A DNA stretch of 64,000 nt from a virus (lineage: Duplodnaviria > Caudoviricetes), in IMG/VR virus record IMGVR_UViG_3300043447_000710, positions 1-64,000 of that record; one strand, given 5' to 3'. Below the pieces are notes generated by a model. It searched no databases. It was not told the origin of the DNA and saw only the letters and a list, made by a program, of their open reading frames with translations. Positions 2,899 to 16,586 of this stretch are shown in pieces (within the stretch, counting starts at the first letter, position 1; each line of letters opens with the position of its first letter). Both the position numbers and the translations under genes were made by a program.

Positions 2899-2912
2899 AA
2901 GATTCCCTTGCG

Positions 2913-2955
2913 GCGGTAACCTCACATAAAAAGGAAGGAGGTTTTACCTCCTTCC
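2913..2955 (-). promoter_or_regulatory. hairpin-ACCRC element, copy 1
   Basis: + strand GCGGT-AACCTCA-CAT-AAAAA-GGAAGGAGG tttta CCTCCTTCC. Confidence 0.75.
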
Positions 2956-3000
2956 GGTCTAAGACTCTATAAGATGAAGGGGCTTAAAGCCCCAGCAATC

Positions 3001-6000
3001 TTAGCCTAGAGTACAGACAAAGTTTTCAGCTTGAACGGCTTCTTCGTTGTCTAGAATGGTCTTGAACATCTGACCTGCAATAGTGTCTTGCAGTAAAGCG
3101 TCCAACAGCATGTCTACGTTAACAGCGCGAGAACGTTCTAGCTCGTCTTCAGACTCAGCCATTTTTTCTAACTCGGCGCGCAGTGACACGAACTTGGCGT
3201 GTGGTCTGAAGCCGAGAATAGCATCAGCGTCGATGAACGGTACGAACTCTTCAAGCTTAGCTTGAGAGACGTCTAATAACATCTGACAGATGCTAAAGAC
3301 AAACCGTAACTCGATCGGCAACATGTCAAAATTGCCACGAGTATCCTTAGAGTAGGCGGTACAGCAACCAGCCCAAAGGAAAGCATCGCGGAACTTTTCA
3401 AAGTCACCAGCCATAAAGCCAAGTTCGGCTAACGCAGAACGGACATCGCTGTCTGGGACGTGAGTAAATTGACGCACTTTGCCTAAGCTAGGTAAGATCG
3501 TGTCAAATTTAGTCTTCTCTTTGCCGATAGCTTTAAGGATATCTTCAGGTAGATTTACATCCAAATCAGTATCTCCCTGCAACGCCCGGTTTAAATAACC
3601 AAGCGTTACTTTAGCCATAGCACTAGAGTAGCCACCCAAAGCGATTTCATAGATCTGCAAGATTCGAGCGCAGCCTAAGCTCGCACTCTCTTCCTGTAAC
3701 ATCCAGTTAAATGCTTTAGTCCAGGCAGGAGCTTCGCCTGTCAGCTCGGTAGTAACTTCGACAACGGTAGGCATCATCTCAGCCAGCAACATAGTCAAAA
3801 TTGCAACTCGATAAGTGTAGCCAACAGTAATGGATTGAACGCTTCCAGCAGCTAATTGCATTTGGATGAGCTTGTTCAGACCCATTACGTTTTTATTCCA
3901 GTTGAAACCAGACTTAGCCTTGAACTCCTTCCAGTTTCCAATCTGGAAGTGATCGGCGACGTACTGATCTGGAGCATTACCCAACCAATACTTCCAATCA
4001 AAAACGTTTACACCAGTAACTTCGTGCAGCATTTTAGCAACGCTGTCAAAGGTGCTTACTTTCAAGTTCTTGGCGGCTACTTGTTTGCTACAGTCAGCAA
4101 TCGAAATTGCGTCTCCGTCTAAGTCGCCAAAGTTAACGTACATAGAAATAGATCCCATGTAAGCCAAACCGTAGCAGAACAAAACGCCGTACTTCTTACG
4201 ATAGTAAGAAACGTCCGCATTGGTAAGAATGCGAAGCTTGCAAACGCAGCCTGCAAACATAGGCATCCGGCGGAATACCACATGCGTGATGTGCTGTGCA
4301 GGTTTACCTACAGCCTTGCCTAATCGGCCTGCTGTCTTCTCAGTCAGCCATAACTCACCGTCTGGTACGAGAATACACGCAGCAGCTTTCATGTAGCCAG
4401 TTTTAGACCCGCGCAATAACGAACGTAAGTGATTGCGTCCGTTATAGTAAGCCCAAAGCATATTGCTAACACTACCAGCCATCCGAATCATTTGGTCTTT
4501 TAGTGGCGCCATTTGATAGAACAACACTAGTTTCAACCAAGAAGTCAGAGCCTTAACAGCAGAATCGCCTTCTACTTTAAGAGAGCCTTTGTTCCAATCG
4601 TACAGAGTTTGTAAATGGATATTCAGATAATTACCACGAGTGGGATCTGTATTACCAATAAACATCATCAGCGTCCGATGTCCAAAGACTTTAGCAAGCG
4701 TACGCAAGAACTCATCATCGCTGACTAGTTCGTCTCTTTGATGGCGCTCTAATAAAGCTTCCATTTCGGTGCCTACTAAAACTTCGATGATGGCACTTAA
4801 GTTAGTGCCGTCTACAGCCTCAGCAGGTATAGCTCCAAATTGAATGCTATCAGCGCTTAGCATCCGGCGAAGGATACCATCAAAAGCAACGTTCTTACGA
4901 ACTTGCTTCATCTGCTCCTTAGCAGGCTCTTTGTAACCTACTAAAGACCACCAAACGGTTTCAGAAGGCAACATTGAAGTGCTAGACACGGCTTCCGGAA
5001 TAGTTCCGGCTTCGACCTCTACAGGGTAGAGAAGGTCTAAACCATCTTTACTACCGTAACCATAGCTACGGGTAAGCATGTGATGCTCGCCGTCCTCAGT
5101 TTGCCAGTAGATGTACACCGTATCTTTTTCGTCGATTTCACCAACTGCATCGGTAACTGCAAAAGCTTTACCGGCCGCCCAGTGCTTATCGGTATAAGTA
5201 CCTTCCCGCTCTAAGCCGAGAACGGCGTCGATTAACTCGGTAGGTAACTTGCCGTCTTCCATCACAGACAATTCGTCAGCAGAAACAAAACGCCAAGGAG
5301 CACCTTTGAGTACTGCCGTCCGATCCTCAGCAACGTACAGACTAGCTATGGAACGGTTGCGTGTATGCGGCGCTTTAAGGCGAGGCATGTCGGCTTCAGG
5401 AGTGGCCTCCTTAAACCAAGCGTAAGTACCAAAACGGACGTCAAAGTCCTCTAGTAATTCGCGATACAAACCAGCCGCACAAGCCTCGGCATCTACGTAC
5501 AACCATTCGTCGTAAGTAGGTAGTTCGATGCCTTTGAAAGCCGCTACTTTACGGTTAGTCTTAACTAACAAGTCGCGCATCGCCGGAACGGTACTACCAT
5601 AATTAGCACACTGGTGCCCCGCAAATTTAACAGGAGCTACAAAGTTGTCTTTCGCTTTAAAGCTATCGCCAGGAACGACTTTTTCGACGTTCTTAAAGCG
5701 GCCGTTGTTTAAGTTCTCATAGTCTAAGAACTTCCACATTTTGACTGCTAAGACGTTTAGCTTCAAGACAACTTCAGAGCGCAGCTTGAGCGTATTCGTA
5801 ACTTGGCAGCGTAACACGTAGTGAACGTAGAAGCGCCGCTCGGCACCCGGATCTACCTCCTCAGTAACTTTAATACTGTCTAGGTAGTATTTTGACGAGT
5901 CGTCACCCTCGTCGATCTGCAAGGTTCCATAGCAAGTAATAGAACCAGCTTTATCAGCAGTCATTAACTTACCGAGAACGTCGCCTTGTTTAACGATAGT

Positions 6001-8868
6001 ACCGCTATCGAATTGGTAACCAATGACTTTTTCGACATCATAGTTTCTCGTTACTAGAGGTTGACACGAGTACTTTTCGTCAACTTCTACCCAGAAACTT
6101 TCAATCGAATCGTTACCTACGACTTTTGCAGCTTGAGACTTCTTGCTGTATACGGCCTTTACGGTATCGATATTCATCAGACCCATGCCAGGAGAAAGCA
6201 ATAGGTTAGGCAGTACTAACGATTTAACGTTAGTTACTTTGTTGACGTTATTAACATCAGTCCGCCAACCAGCCTCAACTTCACAATTGGTCTCTAAAGC
6301 GTGGGCATAGCCCATAACTACACGCTTGACAAACTTTTCAACCTTTGAAGAAAGCGGCGCGCGCAGTTCGACTAAAACTACGTCCCAGAACTGTTCGTTC
6401 TTAGTACCGTAAGCCTCGTGCATAAGAACGCCAGCTTGCAAGCAAGCCATAGCAACTTCCGGCAAGGTGAAGATTGCTTCGACAATAGCACGCTCGTCGT
6501 TCCGATCGAACGAACCGAACTTCTTAGCAAAGCCCGCAGATTGCCACTGGTCTGCTAGCATCATAACGACACTCTGCTTAGACCAGCTATTCACAGCTAC
6601 GATCGACTCTTCGATAAAGTCCTTAACTGCCCCGTTAGGATTGGTAACCAAACCAAAGTGACGAGCTGCTGTCTCAGTCATGGACAGCGCGTTACAAGTA
6701 TGTAAGGCACCATCTTTAGCTAACTGCTTGTAGTAAGCAGTTACGTTGTAAAACTCGCGATCTCGATGCGAACCTTGCAAGGACAACCAAGAGGTTGGGT
6801 GTTGCGCGGTACGGCGCATCAATTCGATCGGCATGGGCATGTTAACTTTGACAGCAACATACTTATTCGCTTCTAACAATGCGCGCCCGCTAGCAGCACT
6901 CATGTCACGCTCGCAGGAAACCTGCTGTACTGGCATGTTGTTGCGAACGAAACGCGAGAAGTAACCACCTTTAGCGTCGGCGAGTTTAGGATTGCTGTTA
7001 TGCTCGCGGTTTATATTGGCAAAGCCGTAAACTTCAAACGCATACCATAAAGCATCCAAGCTAGAAAGTTTAACGCAGTGTTCTACGCTCAACTTACCTT
7101 TGACGCCATCCGCACCAGCTACGAACGGGCGCATATGATACATAGCTAATGAGTCCATTGGCTGCATGTACGCTTGCGCTGGATAGTTACCAACTGGAGC
7201 AGTAACGATAAACTTGTTGCCGCCACTGACAGTTAATTCGAAACCGCGCTCGGTTTCGACAAAAACAAACGGAGCAACGCCTGGTTTGGCGTTTTTACCT
7301 AGGTAGCGTACGACTTCTTGACCTAGCAGCTCGAACGCCGCCTTAACAGAGTCATACTCCAATCCCGATAAAGGCATCAGCCAAGCTTCGTTTACAGGTA
7401 CGAAAGTACACAAAGGTTGATAACCTTTTTCTTGTAAGAAGTAGCCTAAAGCTTCGTACAGGCGCTGAGGAACGATAACGTTTCCATCCCAGTACTGTAA
7501 GCTCATTGCTTGCTTAATGAGCTTGACATACGATTTGGCTTCGTTGCGTTCTAAACCTTCAAAGCGAATCGGTTCGCCTTGGCGCGCCCGGTTCTTTTTG
7601 ACGATCGCATCCAATACTTCTTCGTACTTATAGTTAGGTACTGAGCTAGGAATGATATCCCAAACGATCGACTCCTTAGTATTTGGAGCTTTATCATGGG
7701 ACGCACGCATCCGCGTAACGATGTTCGTACCGCTACGCTGAGCCAATAAGCGCTGCAACTCGCGGCCGCCACTAATCAAAGGCACGAATGCCTCTAGTAA
7801 TATTCCTCCGTCTTTTAAGATAGCGTTTATTTGAAGTGGAACTCCGTAACCATTACCGTACGCACCACGCATGGCCATTACCATGTGGGTAATAGTTTTC
7901 ATGTAGTACTGCTTATCGCAGTAAGGTGCTAACGGACGCTCGAACGCAGTTGCAAAGTTTTTGCAACCAGCAAAGATTGCGTTACGAGCTTCTTGCTCCA
8001 AATACTCTGCTGGTGTAAGAATTGCTTGTTCCATTGTTGTTGACTCCATAGGGGTGTTGGTAGACGTCCCCGTCAATTGGGTTTTACCGGTTTGCTCAAC
8101 CGAACCTACCTCCACAGCGGGAGTAGGAAAGTTCTGACGGCTTTGAAAAGCTATCATTTGAGCCTCATATGCAGCCATGTCGTAATGCTCGTTAGCATAC
8201 ATGCGGCTTTGACGCTGCTGGATCGTCGGCAAGTAACGAGCCACAGGAGCTTTAAGGTCTGCCAACCGCCCACGCTCGACTCTGAGCTGGCGTTCGCTAA
8301 TTTTAGACTTCTCCTTATCGCTCTTAGCCTTAACTGCCTTAGGAGTTTTCGCCTTATTATCAGGAACGACTTTAACTACATTTTCAGTAGCTGCGGTAGT
8401 TTTAATGCTGCTAGGCTTAAGAAGCTTCAGAGTCTTCCGTAAATAACTAGGCCGCTCTAAAGCCTTTACTGCAATCTCCTTGACTTGAAGTTTTGGCTTG
8501 CTTACGCTAGAACGTTTACGCAATAACGGACGTTGTGCCCAATCTAAAGCGATCGGATTGTACGGTATGCGTAACGCCTGACGCTTCAGTACTTTGACTG
8601 GAGCTACTGCTGCTGCTACACGGCTGGCTTTACGCAAAGCTTTAGCAGCCCGTTTCTGACGAGCTGCTAACTTAACTTCAAAGCTTAAGCCGGCTGGCTT
8701 ACGGCTTTTTAACCGCGTAACACGGTTGATTTGCCGAGAGGCTTTTTGAATCGAGCGAATCCGCGCCGCCTTGTTAGACGCACGCTTTAGACTTACTTTG
8801 CTCGAAAGCAAAGAAAGCAAAGAAAGCAAAGAAAGCAAAGAAACAGTAAGAGAAAGGTTAGTAAACAT
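3001..8868 (-). CDS. single-chain two-barrel (double-psi beta-barrel) RNA polymerase, putative non-virion RNAP
   Basis: beta'-like VFRRMP (RRMP at 4261-4272) then NFGDLDGD (4111-4134); beta-like K-x7-K KLRSEVVLK (5761-5787); alternative internal start at 8034 with a GGAG RBS. Confidence 0.8.
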   Translation of the reverse strand: MFTNLSLTVSLLSLLSLLSLLSSKVSLKRASNKAARIRSIQKASRQINRVTRLKSRKPAGLSFEVKLAARQKRAAKALRKASRVAAAVAPVKVLKRQALRIPYNPIALDWAQRPLLRKRSSVSKPKLQVKEIAVKALERPSYLRKTLKLLKPSSIKTTAATENVVKVVPDNKAKTPKAVKAKSDKEKSKISERQLRVERGRLADLKAPVARYLPTIQQRQSRMYANEHYDMAAYEAQMIAFQSRQNFPTPAVEVGSVEQTGKTQLTGTSTNTPMESTTMEQAILTPAEYLEQEARNAIFAGCKNFATAFERPLAPYCDKQYYMKTITHMVMAMRGAYGNGYGVPLQINAILKDGGILLEAFVPLISGGRELQRLLAQRSGTNIVTRMRASHDKAPNTKESIVWDIIPSSVPNYKYEEVLDAIVKKNRARQGEPIRFEGLERNEAKSYVKLIKQAMSLQYWDGNVIVPQRLYEALGYFLQEKGYQPLCTFVPVNEAWLMPLSGLEYDSVKAAFELLGQEVVRYLGKNAKPGVAPFVFVETERGFELTVSGGNKFIVTAPVGNYPAQAYMQPMDSLAMYHMRPFVAGADGVKGKLSVEHCVKLSSLDALWYAFEVYGFANINREHNSNPKLADAKGGYFSRFVRNNMPVQQVSCERDMSAASGRALLEANKYVAVKVNMPMPIELMRRTAQHPTSWLSLQGSHRDREFYNVTAYYKQLAKDGALHTCNALSMTETAARHFGLVTNPNGAVKDFIEESIVAVNSWSKQSVVMMLADQWQSAGFAKKFGSFDRNDERAIVEAIFTLPEVAMACLQAGVLMHEAYGTKNEQFWDVVLVELRAPLSSKVEKFVKRVVMGYAHALETNCEVEAGWRTDVNNVNKVTNVKSLVLPNLLLSPGMGLMNIDTVKAVYSKKSQAAKVVGNDSIESFWVEVDEKYSCQPLVTRNYDVEKVIGYQFDSGTIVKQGDVLGKLMTADKAGSITCYGTLQIDEGDDSSKYYLDSIKVTEEVDPGAERRFYVHYVLRCQVTNTLKLRSEVVLKLNVLAVKMWKFLDYENLNNGRFKNVEKVVPGDSFKAKDNFVAPVKFAGHQCANYGSTVPAMRDLLVKTNRKVAAFKGIELPTYDEWLYVDAEACAAGLYRELLEDFDVRFGTYAWFKEATPEADMPRLKAPHTRNRSIASLYVAEDRTAVLKGAPWRFVSADELSVMEDGKLPTELIDAVLGLEREGTYTDKHWAAGKAFAVTDAVGEIDEKDTVYIYWQTEDGEHHMLTRSYGYGSKDGLDLLYPVEVEAGTIPEAVSSTSMLPSETVWWSLVGYKEPAKEQMKQVRKNVAFDGILRRMLSADSIQFGAIPAEAVDGTNLSAIIEVLVGTEMEALLERHQRDELVSDDEFLRTLAKVFGHRTLMMFIGNTDPTRGNYLNIHLQTLYDWNKGSLKVEGDSAVKALTSWLKLVLFYQMAPLKDQMIRMAGSVSNMLWAYYNGRNHLRSLLRGSKTGYMKAAACILVPDGELWLTEKTAGRLGKAVGKPAQHITHVVFRRMPMFAGCVCKLRILTNADVSYYRKKYGVLFCYGLAYMGSISMYVNFGDLDGDAISIADCSKQVAAKNLKVSTFDSVAKMLHEVTGVNVFDWKYWLGNAPDQYVADHFQIGNWKEFKAKSGFNWNKNVMGLNKLIQMQLAAGSVQSITVGYTYRVAILTMLLAEMMPTVVEVTTELTGEAPAWTKAFNWMLQEESASLGCARILQIYEIALGGYSSAMAKVTLGYLNRALQGDTDLDVNLPEDILKAIGKEKTKFDTILPSLGKVRQFTHVPDSDVRSALAELGFMAGDFEKFRDAFLWAGCCTAYSKDTRGNFDMLPIELRFVFSICQMLLDVSQAKLEEFVPFIDADAILGFRPHAKFVSLRAELEKMAESEDELERSRAVNVDMLLDALLQDTIAGQMFKTILDNEEAVQAENFVCTLG
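8804..8843. repeat. 9-bp tandem repeat (GAAAGCAAA)x4
   Basis: direct reading; encodes SLL repeats in the RNAP N-terminal extension. Confidence 0.9.
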
Positions 8869-8878
8869 TAAGATTGTT

Positions 8879-8921
8879 GCGGTAACGACATATAAAAAGG
8901 AAGGGGTCATTCGACCCCTTC
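8879..8921 (-). promoter_or_regulatory. hairpin-ACCRC element, copy 2
   Basis: GCGGT-AACGACA-TAT-AAAAAG-GAAGGGGTC attc GACCCCTTC. Confidence 0.75.
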
Positions 8922-8978
8922 TTAACTTTTACGAAGCTGCGGTGGCTAAATCAGCGTATGCCCGTACTAAAGTCAGTA

Positions 8979-9182
8979 TTAACGTAATACTGTATGTTGC
9001 ATCTTGCCAAAGCTTACAACGGCTTTAGGTCCTTGCATTTCTACAAATACATCAAACCTGAGGACATTAAACCGTTCGCCATCAAACAGTAATAACCAAT
9101 CATCGATGTCATAACCTTGTAGACGATCTTTCCAATCGTCATGGGTAAAGCCCGCGTACCAATGCTTTATATGTAATTTCAC
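8979..9182 (-). CDS. hypothetical early protein
   Basis: GTG start with AAGGAG RBS; one ORF per repeat unit. Confidence 0.65.
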   Translation of the reverse strand: MKLHIKHWYAGFTHDDWKDRLQGYDIDDWLLLFDGERFNVLRFDVFVEMQGPKAVVSFGKMQHTVLR

Positions 9183-9211
9183 GTTAACTCCTTATGTGGA
9201 TTCAAGTTGTC

Positions 9212-9254
9212 GCGGTAATCGCACATAAAAAGGAAGGAGATATAATCTCCTTCC
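9212..9254 (-). promoter_or_regulatory. hairpin-ACCRC element, copy 3
   Basis: GCGGT-AATCGCA-CAT-AAAAA-GGAAGGAGAT ata ATCTCCTTCC. Confidence 0.75.
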
Positions 9255-9268
9255 AGCTTAAGAGTTAA

Positions 9269-9955
9269 TTAGATTTCGTCATGCGCTGCCCCGTTATGAC
9301 GAACCTCAGCCACCATAAACGGACGCCGCTTATAGCCGTTACCGGAGTACATCAAAGACGTACCCGAAAGCTGGGCAAAGGCACCCTTGAATCCAGGACA
9401 ATCCAAGGCTAGACCGGCGGCCTCACCTATAGATTTGCCAGAGCGACTAGCCTGCTCTGCGTTGGATACTTTCGTATCCCAAATAAGAGCCATAAACTCT
9501 TCGCCTTTTGGGAGGCTGAGAACGAATTGCTTATCGTTCCCAGCCTCCTTTAGAACCCAAGAGCGAATTTTTTGTTCGCTCTTAGAGTCTAAATACCCTA
9601 GATCGAAGAGTTGATTTACATCAACGTAGCCAGTCGTTAAGTTCCGCCAGCGGCTTTTCTCAGCCTCGGAATATTCGCCAGCTTTAAGCTGGGTCATTTT
9701 TCCTTGTTCTGGAATGTAACCGATGCCGATTTTTACCTCGGCATATAAATCCTTACCTTCAGCTACTAACTGAGGTTTGAATAGATATAACCTGACGCAA
9801 CCACTCTGACCATCGTAAATCGCCGAACCAGGAATGCGTAAAAACGCTTTCCCAGCAAAGGCTCCGTCTTCAGGGTACGAAACCCATTCGATTAACTCGT
9901 CGGCATAGTACTTGCCGGCGATGTGTTCTTGAACCTGAGTTAAGTTGACGGACAT
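9269..9955 (-). CDS. hypothetical protein with acidic C-tail (HDEI), paralog of 1771-2466
   Basis: AAGGAG RBS; shared motifs with 1771-2466. Confidence 0.8.
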   Translation of the reverse strand: MSVNLTQVQEHIAGKYYADELIEWVSYPEDGAFAGKAFLRIPGSAIYDGQSGCVRLYLFKPQLVAEGKDLYAEVKIGIGYIPEQGKMTQLKAGEYSEAEKSRWRNLTTGYVDVNQLFDLGYLDSKSEQKIRSWVLKEAGNDKQFVLSLPKGEEFMALIWDTKVSNAEQASRSGKSIGEAAGLALDCPGFKGAFAQLSGTSLMYSGNGYKRRPFMVAEVRHNGAAHDEI

Positions 9956-10014
9956 AATTAATGACTCCTTACTTGTTTATGCGACGCTACCTAGCTAAGC
10001 TTTACAAGCTAGCT

Positions 10015-10058
10015 GCGGTAGATTCGCATAAAAAGGAAGTAGCTTTAAGCTACTTCCT
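10015..10058 (-). promoter_or_regulatory. hairpin-ACCRC element, copy 4
   Basis: GCGGT-AGATTCG-CAT-AAAAA-GGAAGTAGCTT t AAGCTACTTCC. Confidence 0.75.
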
Positions 10059-10065
10059 TAATTAG

Positions 10066-10311
10066 TTAGTCAATAGTTCGCAGAAGATGATAACCCATTT
10101 CCGCCAACCAGGCTCTAGCCAGCCTGTTTAGATCGTGTGGATGTAAGTCTTCAAGCTTTCGCTCGTACTTATACCCTTCTAGGTAAATTTGCCAATCTAC
10201 CTTTAACATTCGGCTTTCTCCTATGTACGTCCATAAGACGTACACATAGTCTATGGTGCCTTGTGGTAACCAAGGAGTGCCGCCAGCATAGTTTTCAGGC
10301 AACTTATACAT
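10066..10311 (-). CDS. hypothetical early protein
   Basis: 81-aa ORF between repeat copies 4 and 5. Confidence 0.65.
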   Translation of the reverse strand: MYKLPENYAGGTPWLPQGTIDYVYVLWTYIGESRMLKVDWQIYLEGYKYERKLEDLHPHDLNRLARAWLAEMGYHLLRTID

Positions 10312-10332
10312 AAATTTCAGCTTAGTTAAGCT

Positions 10333-10376
10333 GCGGTAAGTACATATAAAAAGGAGGGAGCAAAAGCTCCATCCTT
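10333..10376 (-). promoter_or_regulatory. hairpin-ACCRC element, copy 5
   Basis: GCGGT-AAGTACA-TAT-AAAAAGGAGGGAGC aaaa GCTCCATCCTT. Confidence 0.75.
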
Positions 10377-10382
10377 CATTAA

Positions 10383-10970
10383 TTAATCAGCCCTTATGCA
10401 ATTAACAAAGGCTCGACTTTCATCGAGCCCTTTCAGGACTGGGTAGTAATGCCACCGTTCGAATAGCTCCTCCCAGAAAGCAGCGTACACGACCAACGTC
10501 CCATAGCTGTCAAAGCCGTAGAACAGCTCGTCAAGTATGTCCTCAACAAAGACGCTATGGTGTTGTACCAGCTCGTAGATAAGCTGCTCGCGAGTAAAGG
10601 AAATAGCTTTAGCGTAATACTTACGTTTAAGCAATTTGCTTTCGTTTTCAAAGACTCCATCTTCGTGAAGATAGAAAGTCTTCGGAAACACTGGCTTTTG
10701 ATACCAGCGACCGAAGTCACTAGTATCAAAAGCCATTACCGCAAACAGCTCGGCTGGCGAGCAGTAATCATACAAGCCAAGTTTGGCTTTTAGATTAAGA
10801 CTTTTTCCTAATAACGTAGCTTCTTCTTTAGGCGAGACGCCTTCACCCCAGAAGAGATGTTCGATCTCATGCCAACTAATTGGCAGGGTGCTGGCTGAGA
10901 TACTTGCGACCTTACCATCAAGGTAAAGTGTGAAAGAATTCCAGCCGAAAAAAGTAATACTGTTAGACAT
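10383..10970 (-). CDS. hypothetical early protein
   Basis: GGAGTCAACACC-ATG leader; 195 aa. Confidence 0.75.
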   Translation of the reverse strand: MSNSITFFGWNSFTLYLDGKVASISASTLPISWHEIEHLFWGEGVSPKEEATLLGKSLNLKAKLGLYDYCSPAELFAVMAFDTSDFGRWYQKPVFPKTFYLHEDGVFENESKLLKRKYYAKAISFTREQLIYELVQHHSVFVEDILDELFYGFDSYGTLVVYAAFWEELFERWHYYPVLKGLDESRAFVNCIRAD

Positions 10971-10998
10971 GGTGTTGACTCCATATAATTTACATGAG

Positions 10999-11041
10999 GT
11001 GGTAACCTCATATAAAAAGGGAAGGAGATTATCTCCTTCCC
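10999..11041 (-). promoter_or_regulatory. hairpin-ACCRC element, copy 6
   Basis: GTGGT-AACCTCA-TAT-AAAAA-GGGAAGGAGAT t ATCTCCTTCCC. Confidence 0.75.
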
Positions 11042-11047
11042 TTCTCC

Positions 11048-11170
11048 TTATTTAGCCGAGACTTTTACAAAGCTGTAAAAGTCTCGGCATCCAACACCAA
11101 CAGCCGCTACAACTCCTGTAGCGACTAAGATTTGGATTGTGACGCACAAAAGTACAGCGAACTTATTCAT
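11048..11170 (-). CDS. small membrane peptide (40 aa), absent from the ORF track
   Basis: AAGGAG RBS; MNKFAVLLCVTIQILVATGVVAAVGVGCRDFYSFVKVSAK; fills one repeat unit exactly. Confidence 0.7.
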   Translation of the reverse strand: MNKFAVLLCVTIQILVATGVVAAVGVGCRDFYSFVKVSAK

Positions 11171-11200
11171 GAGTTTGACTCCTTTTTATGTGGATTTGAA

Positions 11201-11242
11201 GCGGTAACCGCACATAAAAAGGAAGGAGGATTTCTCCTCCCT
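11201..11242 (-). promoter_or_regulatory. hairpin-ACCRC element, copy 7
   Basis: GCGGT-AACCGCA-CAT-AAAAAGGAAGGAGGATTTCTCCTCCCT. Confidence 0.75.
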
Positions 11243-11249
11243 AACTAGG

Positions 11250-11585
11250 TTAGCTGTGTTTAGCTTTGCGCTGAGCTTTACGCTTAACGCTTATGCGTTT
11301 CTTTAGAGCCTTGCGGTCTAAAGTTATTTTCCACTCCTGACTATGCCGACGAAGACTCGCCAGCGTATCGTACTCCCACTCAGAAGCTACACGCTTCTGA
11401 CCAGTTGTGTTAGCGTCTTCTAAATGCGCTAACAAGTCTTCTTCAAGAGTACCTAAATATTCTTGAAGAAGACTAACATCCACAGCTTCTTTAGCCGCGC
11501 GATGCAACAACACTCGTCCCCAACGGAGACGATCGCTGTTATCTAATGCGAAGTTAAAGTTTTCTAGCGCTTGAGAGAAGTTCAT
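11250..11585 (-). CDS. hypothetical early protein with basic C-terminus
   Basis: GGAGTCAACACC-ATG leader; 111 aa. Confidence 0.75.
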   Translation of the reverse strand: MNFSQALENFNFALDNSDRLRWGRVLLHRAAKEAVDVSLLQEYLGTLEEDLLAHLEDANTTGQKRVASEWEYDTLASLRRHSQEWKITLDRKALKKRISVKRKAQRKAKHS

Positions 11586-11688
11586 GGTGTTGACTCCATA
11601 TAATTTACATGACTTTACAACTCAGAGTAATTCAATTGCTGGATTCTACGTCACCATAGACCTATAGCTAACTTACTTTACATGTGTT

Positions 11689-11734
11689 GCGGTAAGGACA
11701 TATAAAAAGGAGGGGGCTAAGCCCCTTCCTTTTT
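11689..11734 (-). promoter_or_regulatory. hairpin-ACCRC element, copy 8
   Basis: GCGGT-AAGGACA-TAT-AAAAAGGAGGGGGCT a AGCCCCTTCCTTTTT. Confidence 0.75.
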
Positions 11735-11738
11735 AAAG

Positions 11739-12452
11739 CTATTCTCGGAGACATTCCTCATAGAAGATGTCTGCGATCTGCTCTAATGTGAGCCGCTCTA
11801 CCGCGAACTCACGCTGAACCCAACTCCAGTAGGAGCTGAAGTTTTCGAAGTTTATAGGCTTGTATGTCGAGCAGTAAACTTCGAAAACAGCCTGAAGATC
11901 CACCTCAGGTGTTTCTTCCACTTGAGTGGAGTCATACTCCTCCAGCTCAGGGTAATAACGCTCTAGCCACTCTTTCATGGCTAGAGCGTGCCGCTGCTCT
12001 GCAGGGAACTTTTCTTGGAGCCACTCAGAGGTGGCATCCCGCGGGGAAAGCTCTTGCCCCGCGTAGCTGACGCGGAACCGTTCGCTTCCGTTTGGGTTAT
12101 AGGCCCAAACAACGTTTTCGATCGATGATCGGCGGCGCGAACCGATCCCATCGCCCTCATGGAAGCTCTCAATGCTTCCATGCTCATAACTCCATTTGAT
12201 GGAGTTGTATTTTTCGCAATCATCTGTGAGGGATTGCGGCACCGGATTAGCCTCAAGCCAAGGCTCAATAACGTCGATATTGATTACGACAAGCCAGTTG
12301 TCGTAATCAATATTTACCCCTTGATGAGGGTAAATTATAAGATCGGCGTCCCGATCAAAACAATAGATAACGGCGAATTTCTCGCCGGCATCTATTTTTA
12401 CTATCTCTCCTCCAAGGAGGTTGGCAATCTGAAGGGTAACTTTAGCAGTCAT
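11739..12452 (-). CDS. hypothetical acidic early protein
   Basis: start re-called at ATG 12452 (MTAKVT) behind GGAG. Confidence 0.75.
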   Translation of the reverse strand: MTAKVTLQIANLLGGEIVKIDAGEKFAVIYCFDRDADLIIYPHQGVNIDYDNWLVVINIDVIEPWLEANPVPQSLTDDCEKYNSIKWSYEHGSIESFHEGDGIGSRRRSSIENVVWAYNPNGSERFRVSYAGQELSPRDATSEWLQEKFPAEQRHALAMKEWLERYYPELEEYDSTQVEETPEVDLQAVFEVYCSTYKPINFENFSSYWSWVQREFAVERLTLEQIADIFYEECLRE

Positions 12453-12551
12453 GATTAACTCCATTTTTATGTTTACGTGACATCTCCACTACTTCAAGTT
12501 TGATTGCCGGTTTCCATCTAAAGATGGCCTAGCTAACTTACTTTATTAGTA

Positions 12552-12596
12552 GCGGTTAAGTCACATAAAAAGGAAGTCCGCAAGATGCGGACTTCC
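12552..12596 (-). promoter_or_regulatory. hairpin-ACCRC element, copy 9
   Basis: GCGGT-TAAGTCA-CAT-AAAAA-GGAAGTCCGCA aga TGCGGACTTCC. Confidence 0.75.
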
Positions 12597-12601
12597 AATA
12601 C

Positions 12602-12844
12602 TTAATAACGCCCTTCGTAATGGGCGTAATAACATTGAACACCTAGGTGTTCAATGGTTTTGAGCTCCCCAAGGAGCTCTGCTCTGGCTTCCCAGAGCAG
12701 GCCTAGATCTTCGGGATCTAAGCCGAGTTCCGTCTTTCGGAACTCCAGATCGAGCTGCAGCTCGATCTGCGCTACTTGCAAGCGCAGGGCTTGCGCTTGC
12801 AAGTAAATACCGTACGCCTTGCGTACGTTGTAAGTAACTTTCAT
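12602..12844 (-). CDS. hypothetical helical early protein
   Basis: AGGAGAGG RBS; 80 aa. Confidence 0.7.
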   Translation of the reverse strand: MKVTYNVRKAYGIYLQAQALRLQVAQIELQLDLEFRKTELGLDPEDLGLLWEARAELLGELKTIEHLGVQCYYAHYEGRY

Positions 12845-12943
12845 AACCTCTCCTTAGGCTATGTGTTTACAGCTTTTCCTTAACTTCAAGTTCCCTCCCC
12901 GATTCCCATACTCAGATGGTCTAGCAAAGGTACTTTATCCGTA

Positions 12944-12986
12944 GCGGTTAAGCTATATAAAAAGGAAGCCCCTTTACGGGGCTTCC
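12944..12986 (-). promoter_or_regulatory. hairpin-ACCRC element, copy 10
   Basis: GCGGT-TAAGCTA-TAT-AAAAA-GGAAGCCCC tttac GGGGCTTCC. Confidence 0.75.
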
Positions 12987-12993
12987 AAAAAAA

Positions 12994-13317
12994 TTATTTA
13001 ACAAACACCCACTTTACGGGCATTTGTAGGACCTCTGAGGAGGTCCATTTTTCCCCTTCGGCCAGGCGCCGAGGGGTTGTGACCAGGCCGGCTAAGACTT
13101 GGTCAAAACCCCAAACGGGGTTAACCATCACCCGATTAGCGGGGATGGTTACCCCACTAAGGGTGGATAAGATTTCGGCGAAGTCGGCATGGCCGACCGC
13201 CGAGGTGAACTCTTGCTCCGTTAGGAGCACTTTGACCTCTTCCGAGGTCAAAGTTTTGACCAGCACCGGGGTCTCGCCCCAGATGGTGTTTGGTAACGAG
13301 TTCATAACGTACAGCAT
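12994..13317 (-). CDS. acrIII-1: AcrIII-1 / DUF1874 (STIV B116/YddF-like) cA4 ring nuclease, anti-type III CRISPR
   Basis: LYVMNS, FTSAVGH (catalytic His), IPANR and RRLAEG motifs; 107 aa, typical size. Confidence 0.85.
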   Translation of the reverse strand: MLYVMNSLPNTIWGETPVLVKTLTSEEVKVLLTEQEFTSAVGHADFAEILSTLSGVTIPANRVMVNPVWGFDQVLAGLVTTPRRLAEGEKWTSSEVLQMPVKWVFVK

Positions 13318-13418
13318 ACTGCCCTCCTTGGGCTAAAATTTACATGACTTCTGCACTACTTCAAGTTCAATCCCCGGATCTCCTGTTCAAAGGGCCTAGC
13401 AAATCTAGTTTATCCGTA

Positions 13419-13461
13419 GCGGTTTGGTCAGATAAAAAGGAAGCCCCTTTATGGGGCTTCC
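13419..13461 (-). promoter_or_regulatory. hairpin-ACCRC element, copy 11
   Basis: GCGGT-TTGGTCA-GAT-AAAAA-GGAAGCCCC tttat GGGGCTTCC. Confidence 0.75.
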
Positions 13462-13464
13462 AAT

Positions 13465-13818
13465 TTAAAAAAACTCTACGAGTTCTTTTATTAGGTCTAG
13501 ATTACGATCTAGACCATTAAGAACTCTGAGACTTTCGTCCCAGAATTCTTTAATTGTAGGATCGGGGTTATCCCCGAGGACTGCCTCATGCACGAGGAGA
13601 ACCAAATTCTCCTCGGCTTTACTGGGCTTTAGCCCAGTGACTGCATGATTGCCTTCATGCAGTACTTCGAAGCCTTGAACTTCGACAGTCCAAGGCTTAT
13701 TTACTGAGAGGGGATCTAGTCCCCACTCGGCAACAAAAGTTTGGGCGATAACATACGCCCAGAAGGCCCGTTCCCGGAGCCAAATGGCGTATGTTATCGC
13801 CGGAATTAATTCCAGCAT
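13465..13818 (-). CDS. hypothetical early protein
   Basis: 117-aa ORF occupying one repeat unit. Confidence 0.7.
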   Translation of the reverse strand: MLELIPAITYAIWLRERAFWAYVIAQTFVAEWGLDPLSVNKPWTVEVQGFEVLHEGNHAVTGLKPSKAEENLVLLVHEAVLGDNPDPTIKEFWDESLRVLNGLDRNLDLIKELVEFF

Positions 13819-13843
13819 AATTCACCTTGCTACTTCTGCTGTA

Positions 13844-13886
13844 GCGGTAAAGTCGCTGAAAAAGGAAGGAGCCTTGGCTCCTTCCT
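13844..13886 (-). promoter_or_regulatory. hairpin-ACCRC element, copy 12
   Basis: GCGGT-AAAGTCG-CTG-AAAAA-GGAAGGAGCC tt GGCTCCTTCC. Confidence 0.75.
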
Positions 13887-13892
13887 AAAAAA

Positions 13893-14558
13893 TTATTGTT
13901 TAGAGTTCTTATAACTCAGGTAAGTGTCGATCCACTCTGGGATCATCCAGCCCAGTTGGGGGAGGTCTACGACGACGTAGCGCTCCCCATTACCACCAGA
14001 AAAGGCCTTGGTGTCGTCGCCATCGGCGACTAACCACTCCTCTCGACTCCACCGCTCGGATGGATTATCGACAAAGCGATAATCTACCCGAGCAACTGGC
14101 TCGGTAAAGAATATCGTCTCCCAGGTGCATGGGACATCTGTGTACAGATGTCCATTGCCGGCCTCAATTGAGGCCTGTAGGGGTTTTATCCCCTCGTGGA
14201 GTATTGGGATGTCTGGGGTGTGCACCGCTCGGAGTACGAACTCCGACGTGTCCTCAAAATTAAGGGAGTACGCACAGGTGTACTCCTTAGGAATCTCGAC
14301 CTCCGAAAAGGCCTTCAAGCCGTGTTTCGGCTTGGAAGTAAAGAATTCCCACACTATAGTGGGAACAGCGTAACAGTAGAAGGGAGTTAACTCCTCCCCT
14401 TTACTGTTAAAAAATATCATCTCCCGCTGAGGGCGGAATTCGCCCTCATGGAGAATCTTCATGTAATCGTCCCGGCGGACGAACAGCAGAGGGCTGCTGT
14501 TCGCTTGAGTGAGGCGCCCAAGCACGACTTGTTCGGTTCCGTTGAAATCTAAATTCAT
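13893..14558 (-). CDS. hypothetical early protein
   Basis: 221-aa ORF occupying one repeat unit. Confidence 0.75.
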   Translation of the reverse strand: MNLDFNGTEQVVLGRLTQANSSPLLFVRRDDYMKILHEGEFRPQREMIFFNSKGEELTPFYCYAVPTIVWEFFTSKPKHGLKAFSEVEIPKEYTCAYSLNFEDTSEFVLRAVHTPDIPILHEGIKPLQASIEAGNGHLYTDVPCTWETIFFTEPVARVDYRFVDNPSERWSREEWLVADGDDTKAFSGGNGERYVVVDLPQLGWMIPEWIDTYLSYKNSKQ

Positions 14559-14573
14559 ATTTCTACCTTTTTA

Positions 14574-14622
14574 GCGGTAAGGACGCTAAAAAAGGAAGAG
14601 CTAAATATAGCTCTTCCTTTTT
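14574..14622 (-). promoter_or_regulatory. hairpin-ACCRC element, copy 13
   Basis: GCGGT-AAGGACG-CTA-AAAAAGGAAGAGCTA aata TAGCTCTTCCTTTTT. Confidence 0.75.
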
Positions 14623-14624
14623 AA

Positions 14625-14726
14625 TTAAGGCTCGATACTTGATGGCCGCCAACCATCTTTAAATCGACGAACGGCATAGCCGGCAAACTGCTCGGCTATG
14701 TTTCGGCACTTTTGAAAAGGTGTCAT
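14625..14726 (-). CDS. small protein (33 aa), absent from the ORF track
   Basis: GGAGA RBS; MTPFQKCRNIAEQFAGYAVRRFKDGWRPSSIEP; fills one repeat unit. Confidence 0.6.
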   Translation of the reverse strand: MTPFQKCRNIAEQFAGYAVRRFKDGWRPSSIEP

Positions 14727-14767
14727 AAGAATCTCCAATTAATTTGTGTGTAAACAACTTACCTATA

Positions 14768-14809
14768 GCGGTTAAGTCACTAAAAAAGGAAGGGGCTAAG
14801 CCCCTTCCT
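14768..14809 (-). promoter_or_regulatory. hairpin-ACCRC element, copy 14
   Basis: GCGGT-TAAGTCA-CTA-AAAAA-GGAAGGGGCT a AGCCCCTTCC. Confidence 0.75.
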
Positions 14810-14814
14810 AAAAA

Positions 14815-15183
14815 TTAATTAAAGATAGTAACGACTATCTGGGCTTCCACCCAGATAACTTCGTCTGCTTTGGGGCTGCCCAACCCCGAAGCGTTTAACT
14901 CTTTCCCGGCGACGACGGGCGCTGAGCCCTCGTCCCAGGACAATGTTATATGTGGGGTGTTGGGGCTTGTTAAGCCCTCGGGCAATACTGCCCGGAGGCA
15001 GTCTGTTTCCTGCCCCTTAAAGTAGGGCCCCAACCCTACTTTAATAATCTCGCCCTCCTGGGCGAGCAGATCTTCAGGCAGTTCGCCAAAGGCTAGGGTT
15101 ACTCCCCAGCCTTGAGGTTTGTTATTAAACGTACCTTCTGTAGAAGGTGCCTTTAATAAAACCGCTTTGATTAAACCTTTCAT
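14815..15183 (-). CDS. 2H phosphoesterase-like protein
   Basis: start re-called at 15183 (GGAGTCAACACC-ATG); second motif PHITLS intact, first motif degenerate (WGVTLAFG). Confidence 0.55.
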   Translation of the reverse strand: MKGLIKAVLLKAPSTEGTFNNKPQGWGVTLAFGELPEDLLAQEGEIIKVGLGPYFKGQETDCLRAVLPEGLTSPNTPHITLSWDEGSAPVVAGKELNASGLGSPKADEVIWVEAQIVVTIFN

Positions 15184-15214
15184 GGTGTTGACTCCACATC
15201 TATATTTACATGAG

Positions 15215-15256
15215 GTGGTAACCTCATATAAAAAGGAAGGGGATTTCTCCCCTTCC
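15215..15256 (-). promoter_or_regulatory. hairpin-ACCRC element, copy 15
   Basis: GTGGT-AACCTCA-TAT-AAAAA-GGAAGGGGA tttc TCCCCTTCC. Confidence 0.75.
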
Positions 15257-15261
15257 AAATA

Positions 15262-15516
15262 TTATGGATACAGTAAAGACCAGCCGGTCATACCGGCTAC
15301 TGCATTATTAATGCAAGTCGTTGAGGCGACTATTTCGCCCCCATCTTCTATACAATGGGCTGAATACTCGCCCCCTTGTTTCACGAACAGAGCGTGAGAG
15401 ACCTCTCGGTCTCCTGCGCTCCACTCAGTCTTCGTTACGAAGACTGAGACGCTTTCCGCCTTTTCCTTGGTAAATTTACCTGGGAAGTTGGCAGAGAGAT
15501 ATTCGAACTTATTCAT
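15262..15516 (-). CDS. hypothetical early protein
   Basis: GGAGTCAACACC-ATG leader; 84 aa. Confidence 0.7.
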   Translation of the reverse strand: MNKFEYLSANFPGKFTKEKAESVSVFVTKTEWSAGDREVSHALFVKQGGEYSAHCIEDGGEIVASTTCINNAVAGMTGWSLLYP

Positions 15517-15544
15517 GGTGTTGACTCCAATATATTTACATGAG

Positions 15545-15591
15545 GTGGTAACCTCATATAAAAAGGAAGTAGGTATTACCTACTCCCTTTT
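15545..15591 (-). promoter_or_regulatory. hairpin-ACCRC element, copy 16
   Basis: GTGGT-AACCTCA-TAT-AAAAAGGAAGTAGGTA t TACCTACTCCCTTTT. Confidence 0.75.
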
Positions 15592-15593
15592 AT

Positions 15594-15866
15594 CTAAGCT
15601 CGTTTAACCTGTAAGTAATACTTACCCCCGAGCTCTCGCTCGGAAATAATTATTACTTCATCGATGTTCTGAAAGAACATCAGGGCGTCACGCCCAAAGT
15701 CACAGCACTCAAACAGAACTACTTCGGAGTGGAAACTCCGAACTAGTTTCAAAAATGAATCCAACTCACTGTGATCGGTATCACAGTAGTTGAACGTGTT
15801 GACAACTACGTAGTTGTCAAGCAAACTGCTTACTTTACAACCTTCTGCGTTTAAAACTACTAACAT
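15594..15866 (-). CDS. hypothetical early protein
   Basis: AAGGAG RBS; 90 aa. Confidence 0.7.
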   Translation of the reverse strand: MLVVLNAEGCKVSSLLDNYVVVNTFNYCDTDHSELDSFLKLVRSFHSEVVLFECCDFGRDALMFFQNIDEVIIISERELGGKYYLQVKRA

Positions 15867-15883
15867 ATCTAAGCTCCTTTAAA

Positions 15884-15924
15884 GCGGTAATTACGCATAA
15901 AAAGGAAGGGGGATTTCTCCCCCT
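15884..15924 (-). promoter_or_regulatory. hairpin-ACCRC element, copy 17
   Basis: GCGGT-AATTACG-CAT-AAAAAGGA-AGGGGGA tttc TCCCCCT. Confidence 0.75.
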
Positions 15925-15931
15925 AAAAAAA

Positions 15932-16210
15932 TTATTTAACTGTCATATTACAATCATTTACTTCGATCGAGTAACGATCGAAGTAACGATCGGCTTTTAA
16001 CCGATCGTTTAACTGAGTTACAAATCGGCACGCAATCTGCCGGTCTGAAGGATGCATCTCTGCATCCTTCAGACGAGCGAGCTTACCGTTAACCTTCTTC
16101 TCTAAACGCTCAGCGCTCCGCTGAGCGTCCTGCATCTCACCATAACCAAGAAGGGTTACAATGGATGTGACAACTAAAGAACTACGAACGATAACAGCGA
16201 AAACTTTCAT
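15932..16210 (-). CDS. hypothetical protein with N-terminal hydrophobic segment
   Basis: GGAG RBS; MKVFAVIVRSSLVVTSIVTLLG. Confidence 0.7.
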   Translation of the reverse strand: MKVFAVIVRSSLVVTSIVTLLGYGEMQDAQRSAERLEKKVNGKLARLKDAEMHPSDRQIACRFVTQLNDRLKADRYFDRYSIEVNDCNMTVK

Positions 16211-16238
16211 GGTAATTACTCCATATAATTTACATGAG

Positions 16239-16282
16239 GTGGTAACCTCATATAAAAAGGGAGTAGATATTATCTACTTCCT
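16239..16282 (-). promoter_or_regulatory. hairpin-ACCRC element, copy 18 (first in transcription order)
   Basis: GTGGT-AACCTCA-TAT-AAAAAGGGAGTAGATA t TATCTACTTCCT; no gene directly upstream. Confidence 0.75.
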
Positions 16283-16382
16283 AATTATTATGAGTAATCC
16301 AAAGGGGTCTAAAAACTTTTCTCGGTAGTCCTAGGTTTTTCAAATCTAAAGACCCCCTAGGATGTACTACCTAATATAAACC

Positions 16383-16546: not shown

Positions 16547-16586
16547 GTTCATAAAGTAACGTTGTGCTTTTACAACTGTTGTAAGT

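Follow-up and report, generated by a model that had tools for sequence, protein, structure and literature searches.

The DNA examined here is the first 64,000 nucleotides of a 152,640-bp contig (bases 1-64000, from here on the window) from a tailed phage, IMG/VR record IMGVR_UViG_3300043447_000710. It holds an array of early single-gene cassettes, separated by 18 near-identical copies of one element: a hairpin, a T-tract and a conserved motif at invariant spacing. This is a real, sharply defined, lineage-specific regulatory element, and it is most likely a joint between a terminator and a promoter that also acts as a recombination seam. In the specific form that we favor, and to which we give a probability of about one half, it is a composite of an intrinsic terminator and a phage-specific promoter, similar to the promoter-early stem-loop (PeSL) cassettes of other phages but without their sigma-70 promoter. 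The phage is a cyanophage with its own unusual RNA polymerase (RNAP), and the gene for that polymerase is the last one of the array. The anatomy of the element, its conservation, its covariation, its restriction to the early array and the recombination breakpoints are direct observations.

A search of the window for the pattern TTTTT-N10-ACCRC returns 18 matches, where dinucleotide shuffles of the window predict 0.52 and no shuffle reached more than 3. All 18 are on the minus strand, from 2913 to 16282, and they fall exactly on the 18 positions listed in an initial annotation made from the letters alone. The whole genome adds one further match, at 119359, and that one has no hairpin. We also built a covariance model of hairpin plus core from 13 element copies. 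The model recovers 18 out of 18 copies with scores of 29-74 bits, its sense-strand matches are confined to window positions 2908-16288, and the remaining 88 kb of the genome produce no sense-strand match. The genome-wide search that had been suggested as a check thus confines the element to the early array.

Following the minus strand, the order is: tail and baseplate genes, three 66-bp repeats, 16 small cassettes, the giant polymerase gene, one element, and a gene of 231 aa. The genome also has the portal, protease, major head, sheath and tape-measure-like genes of a tailed phage. After each copy of the element there is one open reading frame (ORF), which in one case is the 1955-aa polymerase gene and otherwise has 33 to 241 aa, and the ORF positions agree with the initial claim of one ORF per copy, including those of 33 and 40 aa. 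The copies begin 4-15 nt past a stop codon in 17 of 18 cases. Copy 18 sits in a 376-nt gap and has, as had been noticed, no adjacent gene upstream. Leaders, measured from ACCRC to the start codon, fall into two classes, of 10-41 nt and of 87-103 nt, apart from that of the last copy with 446 nt.

The hairpin, the motif and a second stem

Positions within the element are counted from the first T of the T-tract. The first hairpin (HP1) is GC-rich, with a stem of 7-13 bp, a loop of 3-7 nt and a folding energy of -8 to -19 kcal/mol, and at every copy it abuts the T-tract with no spacer. The pairs at the base of the stem are nearly constant (GGAAG/CTTCC), the inner five pairs vary freely, and the loop sequences show no conservation among copies. 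All 10 modelled pairs change on both sides in an alignment of 84 distinct rows, which bears out the early description of a conserved outer stem with a compensating inner one. Of the cells of the alignment 97% are paired, versus 54-64% when the 3′ partner is slid, a comparison to be read with the caveat that the alignment was fitted to the model and favors the structure. The two arms are not kept equally well. Conservation is higher in the 3′ arm, CTTCC, than in the 5′ arm opposite, with 13 A.C versus 6 G.U defects, mostly at the base of the stem. In 36 of 46 copies the template strand gives the slightly more stable hairpin (p = 2e-4), with a difference of 0.9 kcal/mol.

The T5 tract is present in each of 47 unique copies (47/47) from four phages, and across the same copies positions -5 to +23 have high information content and zero indels. 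The core positions are A+5, T+6, Y+8, G+9, Y+13, T+14, ACCRC from +15 to +19, C+22 and A+23. With CTTCC at -5 to -1, the full motif is CTTCC-TTTTT-AT.YG-N3-YTACCRC-NN-CA, 28 nt in length, and most copies carry TAT(A/G)(T/C)G. The motif cannot be fitted to -35/-10 boxes and has no TAnnnT -10 hexamer in register. Sigma-70-like sites number 18, where 21.8 are expected, and none of them is regularly placed at the elements. With neither enrichment nor a -35/-10 fit, we reject a host sigma-70 promoter as the function of the motif. Another candidate that we tried and rejected is a small upstream ORF initiating at the ATG inside ATATG/ATGTG, because that ATG is missing in several copies and has no ribosome site ahead of it.

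Two features go beyond the element as initially annotated: the 66-bp repeat upstream of the array, considered below, and a second, copy-specific stem. In this second stem (HP2), the T-tract and ATRYG(NNN) pair with a segment particular to each copy and located 4-30 nt downstream. The 3′ arm usually stops right before the Shine-Dalgarno sequence, as in TTTTTATGTG..CACATAAAAA-GGAG at 11220; other examples are TTTTTTAGCG..CGCTAAAAA at 14593 and TTTTTATACGTAG..CTACGTATAAAA-GGAG in the related contig L002. Pairing of the arm is stronger with the downstream sequence of the same copy than with those of other copies (-7.6 vs. -5.2 kcal/mol, p = 2e-8), and the preference holds for each phage taken by itself (window p = 6e-5, L001 4e-4, L002 0.03). 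A fixed 5′ arm with a 3′ arm at variable distance is the pattern of a 5′-terminal mRNA hairpin, and would place the 5′ end of the RNA near the T-tract or ATRYG. The facts of HP2 and of the leader also fit a processed 5′ end. Sense and antisense strands fold equally well (p = 0.37), so HP2 cannot be assigned to RNA or to DNA by its fold.

Four cassettes share in addition a leader module of about 100 nt, ..TAAAGTAAGTTAGCTA..GAACTTGAAGT.., at 13318-13424, 12845-12949, 12465-12557 and 11586-11694 on the minus strand. The module also precedes unrelated genes in L001 and L003, and its consensus fold is weak (-6.8 kcal/mol).

The polymerase, its relatives and cassette turnover

The polymerase gene (3001..8868, minus strand) is flanked by elements 2 and 1. 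It encodes a single chain of ~1955 aa from an ATG at 8868; a longer ORF of 1969 aa starts at 8910, inside hairpin 2. The extra hairpin that had been attributed to this gene, at 2979-2993, is indeed present. Near the start of the gene (8800-8866, minus strand) there is also a 9-nt tandem repeat, CTTTGCTTT, in four to five copies, which gives an N-terminal Ser-Leu-Leu repeat.

By sequence, the protein has no match in Pfam, PHROG or the PDB. Its family consists of 34 proteins at E ≤ 1e-3 (out of 1.84 billion representatives). In 22 members, the invariant residues are R-x-P (R300, P302), GDxDGD some 45 residues on, and a few more, a spacing that we take to resemble the R-x-P-x-x-H ... NADFDGD pattern of the β′ barrel. 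When six distant members of the family were compared with Pfam, no RNAP or RNA-dependent RNA polymerase (RdRP) domain was found. The identification comes from predicted structure. A first AlphaFold2 (AF2) model of the C-terminal half, using a 6-sequence alignment, was unusable, with a predicted local distance difference test score (pLDDT) of 50. A 22-sequence alignment gave a model of residues ~1249-1919 with a pLDDT of 83.5. Nearly all of its best 50 Foldseek matches are cellular or viral RNAP largest subunits, QDE-1 or P23-45 gp96, at E-values that individually are only 2.5e-3 to 2e-2. Using VIA-align, the best match is P74-26 gp62 (Z 10.2, 261 residues aligned, root-mean-square deviation (rmsd) 4.8), then QDE-1 (Z 9.8, 342 aligned, rmsd 6.4), followed by RDR2, African swine fever virus (ASFV), Pol II and bacterial β′. 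Neighbors of the protein in the ESM Atlas carry PF05183. The Z values are middling, so the two-barrel match rests on the consistency of the matches together with the catalytic motif. Judged by its modelled fold, the giant gene is a two-barrel RNA polymerase, in agreement with its first description as an RNAP gene.

What other polymerase could the phage have? No T7-like polymerase was seen among the large ORFs of the window. An ORF of 3488 aa in the structural gene block (26570-37036, minus strand) has GGDFDGD at residue 2072 and a DnaQ-type exonuclease match at residues 1461-1661. Using hhalign, it aligns to the polymerase family over 14 columns around GGDFDGD only (E = 0.009, probability 4%). 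Profile-profile and BLAST comparisons with the family add no similarity outside the catalytic motif, the PDB has no sequence match to the ORF, and its Atlas score of 0.81 is uninformative.

Related contigs were fetched via homologues of the polymerase, and in seven related contigs the element is again present around the giant gene. In L003, with a polymerase 99% identical, there are at least 17 elements; L001 (57%) has 10, and L002 (47%) has 9. In L004-L006 and L048, with polymerases 35-40% identical, the element takes a variant form, CC-TTTTTT-AAYG-N3-YK-ACTGC, with the same T5-N10-ACYGC geometry. L049 (JGI 3300027848, an 18.8 kb contig) has three elements, which lie on the flanks of a 174-aa gene and of the polymerase gene. 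The L049 homologue has 1742 aa, and the identical protein occurs on 11 contigs. Its neighbors look cellular (an AI-2E transporter, a CLC channel fragment, a group II intron reverse transcriptase, a TacA antitoxin and Uma2), and L049 may be a chromosomal or degraded-prophage copy of a module made of polymerase plus element.

At every locus there is an element directly before the polymerase gene, and another directly after it wherever the contig extends that far. Even between phages with unrelated cassette genes and no more than 47-57% identity in the polymerase, the motif is retained. A maximum-likelihood tree of the polymerase separates two clades, A and B, with 100/98-99 support, which match the two variants of the motif: T5-AT.YG..ACCRC (window, L001, L002, L049) and T6-AAYG..ACTGC (L004-L006, L048). 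It is suggestive, and only that, of a motif that changes together with the polymerase lineage; as the match amounts to a single split, it is weak evidence.

The 228-aa gene (9269-9955, minus strand) and its 231-aa paralogue (1771-2466, minus strand) form the sole cassette family common to all the phage relatives. The family belongs to no Pfam family, it adjoins the polymerase gene in L001, L002, L006 and L048, and its proteins could be accessory or specificity factors of the polymerase. Before the 231-aa gene, the last element is followed by a non-coding leader of 330-650 nt (window 2467-2912, minus strand; L001 15915-16243; L048 6920-7404; L004 7565-7954). Its motif CGTCTTTTGYACG is kept in both clades and is repeated in clade B with GGGCTTGCTGGTT. 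This long leader could be a structured RNA or a regulatory region. On the other side of the 231-aa gene, we observe a sub-threshold match to HEARO RNA (RF02033) at window 1485-1680, minus strand (50 bits vs. a gathering score of 83, E = 9e-8), which adjoins short ORFs and lies downstream of a strong bidirectional hairpin at 1722-1760.

Outside this set of contigs, searches of public phage records with the array (blastn) and with the polymerase (tblastn) produced no match, and the only match of the tail sheath, at 25%, is to a Microcoleus phage. In IMG/VR, a back-translated search with the polymerase found no match, and a scan for the DNA pattern found 36 single chance matches and no array, with covariance-model scores of at most 31 bits. 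The relative L001 carries nblA. The cyanophage Ma-LMM01 was considered as a relative and discarded, as no sequence similarity was found; its transcriptome has a compact early cluster with host-type promoters only (PMC5780444).

The window and L003 are close enough to follow individual rearrangements. They have 95-97% DNA identity over the polymerase gene and shared blocks, and they differ by three events. In event A, hairpin 16 is followed in L003 by the leader that belongs to element 15, and the 84-aa cassette is lost, with a crossover that falls within the 34-nt core identical in both elements. In event B, L003 gains a 445-aa cassette and two elements between the Shine-Dalgarno sequence and the ATG of the element-14 unit. 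In event C, the cassettes of 117, 107, 80 and 241 aa in the window correspond to a single 184-aa cassette in L003; one breakpoint falls within hairpin 12, in its 5′ arm, and the other within hairpin 8, in the loop or the 3′ arm. Every breakpoint of the three rearrangements, six out of six, falls within an element or a leader. This bears out the earlier proposal of a recombination handle. In the comparison of cassette order between relatives, content and order vary everywhere outside the 228-aa gene and its paralogue. On the evidence of these alignments, the elements are seams where related phages swapped genes. The positions of the breakpoints are scattered, which argues for homologous recombination and not for one fixed crossover point.

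L003 also shows two cassettes in decay (L003 3316-3740 and 5240-5330). The homologue of the 122-aa gene has lost its ribosome site and start codon, and the 33-aa ORF has ATA instead of ATG.

What the element may do

From sequence we infer four things about the element, namely termination, initiation, the start site, and which polymerase reads the signal. Starting with termination, HP1 and the five U residues would stop the message of the upstream gene. The anatomy is that of an intrinsic terminator (a GC-rich stem, a short loop, a U-tract directly 3′), present at every copy, just as the initial annotation had it, and in 17 of 18 copies it stands downstream of a stop codon. Such an anatomy, a few bases past the stop codons, suggests a terminator or a 3′-end protector. 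As for initiation, the 28-nt motif is most likely a promoter for a phage polymerase, given its length, its rigid register, the one class of genes that it precedes, its persistence among unrelated cassettes, its change between clades and its linkage to the polymerase gene. A promoter of a sigma-independent phage polymerase is expected to be a motif of about 20-30 nt, in fixed register, before one gene class and absent from the rest of the genome, and the 28-nt motif has these traits. The 3′ arm of HP1, the T-tract and the bases that follow would constitute the promoter and initial transcribed region of a sigma-independent phage polymerase, either the two-barrel enzyme from the end of the array or an enzyme delivered in the virion. 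The fact that the CTTCC arm is better kept than its 5′ partner suggests that the promoter sequence begins inside the hairpin, and that would explain the fixed geometry.

The 5′ end of the new message would then fold into the copy-specific HP2, ending just before the ribosome-binding site. The purines available for initiation are A+5, R+7, G+9 and R+18. Because the non-virion polymerase of phiKZ starts at the G of TATG (PMC4666361), a start at G+9 is a reasonable guess by analogy, with R+18, the purine of ACCRC, as the alternative. Having both a stop and a start at each joint, every early gene would be an insulated, self-sufficient expression unit. And because 18 near-identical joints stand in a row, cassettes could be deleted, inserted or replaced by homologous recombination.

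Several observations weigh against a promoter at each element. In many copies HP2 includes the T-tract, and a start at or after +9 would exclude that part of the stem. Some ACCRC leaders are very short (10 nt with no Shine-Dalgarno sequence for the polymerase gene; ACCGGAG-N6-ATG in L002), which suggests that the RNA begins further upstream or that read-through RNA is translated. In L003, an element at ~2950 has lost ACCGC although its gene is intact. A k-mer enrichment analysis of upstream and intergenic regions found no second phage-specific motif for the remaining genes. The 3488-aa ORF is only a candidate virion polymerase, considering that its match to the polymerase family is limited to the 14-residue catalytic motif. 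Finally, there are the 66-bp repeats. Three tandem units, AAAGCTGGAGAAAATTA..CTNAGCTGRAAATTG.., at 16380..16560 on the minus strand, directly precede element 18 and occur nowhere else in the genome. In L001, a phage with a polymerase 57% identical, the first early gene has a single copy of the unit upstream (L001 5150-5260), with ~96% conservation, and the AGCTGG..ATTA motif of L006 recurs in this genome only within the three repeats. A unit so strongly conserved could be the real first promoter of the array, an operator or another cis site. It does not fit a sigma-70 promoter.

Suppose that transcription starts only at those repeats, by a host or injected polymerase, and that the elements punctuate one long early transcript at the RNA level, as in T7. 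HP1 would be a 3′ protector or weak terminator, the motif a cleavage or protein site, HP2 a shield for the new 5′ end, and the outcome would be stable single-gene messages. The layout is indeed T7-like, with tandem repeats upstream, hairpins between the small genes, the polymerase gene at the end and one more hairpin after it. The 66-bp unit has diverged far less than the polymerase, some leaders are very short, and HP2 often spans the U-tract, so that an RNA with this stem would have its start at the tract or ahead of it, like a processed end. However, with 17 strong hairpin-plus-U5 signals one behind the other, little transcription would reach the distal polymerase gene if the polymerase did not ignore such signals, and copy 18 would cut or terminate the transcript ahead of the first gene. 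An indel-free 28-nt motif in register with a hairpin is more typical of a DNA-protein interface, HP1 (8-13 bp) is too short for RNase III, and the repeats that would have to serve as the start misfit sigma-70. We also rejected a trans-acting ribozyme or guide complementary to the motif, as there is no ribozyme or other Rfam family and no complement on the transcribed strand genome-wide. The fit to a processed end and the conserved 66-bp unit leave substantial weight to this explanation, the main rival of the one that we favor, although we consider it rather unlikely. Less conventional, and in our judgment unlikely, is a bifunctional signal in which hairpin, T-tract and motif, as extruded or melted DNA, would be the promoter of the single-chain two-barrel polymerase and, as RNA, the terminator of the same polymerase. 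If true, this would be the first defined promoter for the type of enzyme represented by YonO, crAss gp66 and P74 gp62, and stop and restart would be physically coupled at every early gene.

The initial annotation had pointed to the hairpin promoters of N4. The part about a fused phage promoter stands, in that the motif is long, conserved, not sigma-70-like and found in the early array only; membership in the N4 family fails on polymerase class, stem length and loop. A structured promoter of the N4 kind, with HP1 extruded from supercoiled DNA and read by a phage polymerase and the RNA hairpin used for termination, looks improbable to us. The motif is never found without the hairpin, including copy 18, where there is nothing to terminate, and a gene-free tandem pair in L003. 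There is no spacer between the two, the base of the stem is kept and the top is variable, following the stem logic of N4 (PMC4496689), and there is the better folding of the template strand. That strand bias, though, is small and explained by G-to-A changes at the base of the stem, and hairpin and motif would stay together anyway via block duplication or recombination. The polymerase is two-barrel and not T7-like, the loops are unconserved, the stems exceed the 5-7 bp of N4, and for phi14:2 gp66, the best-studied single-chain virion two-barrel enzyme, no common motif was found upstream of its transcripts (bioRxiv 10.1101/2020.03.07.982082). If instead the elements were plain terminators, the conserved 3′ flank would be a by-product of recent spacer duplication or gene conversion and have no function of its own. 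Long identical stretches among copies, such as the four with ATATGAGGTTACCACCTCATGTAAAT, do show conversion or duplication within the array. This gets a very small chance, because fixed positions stand beside freely varying ones, in unrelated cassettes and at polymerase identities of 35-57%, the spacing is constant, and the variant follows the polymerase clade. Could the elements be dedicated sites, similar to the attC sites of integrons, at which single-gene cassettes are captured and excised by site-specific recombination? Each single-gene cassette is bounded by a hairpin with a conserved outer and a variable inner stem, and close relatives differ in cassettes with breakpoints in the elements. 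We find the idea hardly credible, as there is no integrase beside the array, the larger array ORFs have no recombinase match in Pfam or PHROG, hairpins of 20-27 nt are far below the size of attC sites (imperfect palindromes of 57-141 nt), and the breakpoints are spread over hairpin, core and the region from Shine-Dalgarno to ATG.

The array copy by copy, and known systems

In the direction of transcription, with all positions on the minus strand, the array begins with element 18 (16234..16281, 71.6 bits), before a 92-aa ORF (16210-15932). Its sequence is a hairpin GGAAGTAGAT-aat-ATCTACTCCC, then T5, then ATATGAGGTTACCAC-CTCA. Element 17 (15879..15924) precedes a 90-aa ORF (15866-15594). Element 16 (15540..15587), before the 84-aa ORF (15516-15262), is the recombination partner in L003 of element 15 (15210..15256), which precedes the 122-aa ORF (15183-14815). 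The next two copies are T6 variants. Element 14 (14763..14808) stands before the 33-aa ORF (14726-14625), and in L003 it precedes the 445-aa gene; element 13 (14569..14617), with the second stem TTTTTTAGCG/CGCTAAAAA, stands before a 221-aa ORF (14558-13893). Element 12 (13839..13885), before the 117-aa ORF (13818-13465), holds the left breakpoint of the four-cassette replacement relative to L003.

Copies with long leaders follow: element 11 (13414..13461; 101-nt leader) before the 107-aa ORF (13317-12994), element 10 (12939..12986; 99-nt leader) before the 80-aa ORF (12844-12602), and element 9 (12547..12596; leader of ~90-100 nt) before the 241-aa ORF (12464-11739). Element 8 (11684..11729; 103-nt leader), which holds the right breakpoint of the same replacement, precedes a 111-aa ORF (11585-11250). 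Element 7 (11196..11241) is before a hydrophobic 40-aa ORF (11170-11048), and its second stem TTTTTATGTG/CACATAAAAA ends beside GGAG. Then come element 6 (10994..11041) before a 195-aa ORF (10970-10383), element 5 (10328..10374) before an 81-aa ORF (10311-10066), element 4 (10010..10057) before the 228-aa ORF (9955-9269), and element 3 (9207..9254) before a 67-aa ORF (9182-8979). Element 2 (8874..8922) is directly before the polymerase gene, whose ATG at 8868 is 10 nt past ACCGC. Element 1 (2908..2955, 73.7 bits) is directly after the polymerase gene, and is followed by the 446-nt non-coding leader and the 231-aa gene (2466-1771).

The 107-aa cassette (12994-13317) encodes a STIV_B116-like protein (DUF1874, the AcrIII-1 ring-nuclease family), scoring 40.7 bits where the cut-off is 26. 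In L002 and L048 its homologues are outside the array, downstream of the polymerase gene. For the remaining cassette genes, of which the larger ones were compared with Pfam and PHROG, no known family was found. Because its cassettes include an anti-CRISPR gene of the AcrIII-1 family, the array is probably a shuffling store of genes for host takeover and anti-defense.

The T7 early region has three tandem host promoters, RNase III sites between genes, the gene 1 polymerase and the terminator TE. The array resembles it in having tandem repeats first, small early genes separated by hairpins, a polymerase near the end and a final hairpin. It differs in that the T7 sites are RNase III hairpins of ~20 bp with no U-tracts or linear motif, and the T7 promoters are clear sigma-70 promoters. 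With N4, the element has in common a hairpin with both conserved and freely covarying stem positions right upstream of the presumed start (PMC4496689), signals for early genes only, and a giant ORF that may be injected. But the N4 enzyme is T7-like and the one here two-barrel; N4 has three promoters, with stems of 5-7 bp and a conserved 3-nt loop centred at -11 (a GC-rich heptamer), compared with 18 copies, stems of 7-13 bp, unconserved loops and a U-tract that would make the hairpin a terminator. The late promoters of the phiKZ non-virion RNAP, TATG with a start at the G (PMC4666361), are alike in having a sigma-independent polymerase of the two-barrel class and a short motif overlapping the start site. 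There, the enzyme is multisubunit, the motif is 4 nt and there is no hairpin, so that the resemblance is a lead for the start site and not a test of it.

In general, the promoters of single-chain two-barrel phage polymerases are poorly defined. The study of YonO reportedly left its promoter undetermined. Here we have a sharply defined 28-nt candidate signal with a small family. The 18 copies, the natural variants in two clades and the fixed register with a terminator hairpin form a set of ready templates for in vitro transcription.

As a transcription programme, the closest analog is the pre-early cluster of the Thermus phage P23-45. Its small genes are interspersed with ~14 promoters of the virion RNAP (vRNAP) and 7 terminators that have a conserved motif, and they include the gene of a second, non-virion two-barrel RNAP (Chaban et al. 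2024, PMC10770324). The array likewise is a cluster of small genes with many copies of a putative phage promoter, with motif-bearing putative terminators, and with a two-barrel RNAP gene included. P74-26, a relative of P23-45, provides the best structural match of the polymerase, gp62 (Z 10.2). On the other hand, the promoter and terminator motifs of P23-45 are described as separate elements, and its virion polymerase, fused to the tape-measure protein, has been proven by ChIP-seq and cappable-seq.

In its working, the closest known system, again by analogy, is that of the PeSL cassettes of T4-type phages (Arbiol et al. 2010, PMC2839356; Comeau et al. 2014, PMC4122927). The order of the parts is the same: stem-loop terminator, AT-rich tract, promoter motif, Shine-Dalgarno sequence and ATG. 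In both, a plastic early region holds a cluster of units, each with a single small gene whose function is unknown, and close relatives differ by insertions, deletions and replacements, with crossovers inside the units (between Shine-Dalgarno and ATG, or in the stem-loop). The differences are that the element has a lineage-specific 28-nt motif that overlaps the hairpin and is not sigma-70-like, the sigma-70 promoter being the defining feature of PeSLs, and that this phage is not T4-like, has its own two-barrel polymerase and carries an extra copy-specific second stem. The PeSL principle of self-contained cassettes, with control repeats that double as recombination seams, would thus extend beyond T4-type phages with host-type promoters to a cyanophage lineage with its own transcription machinery.

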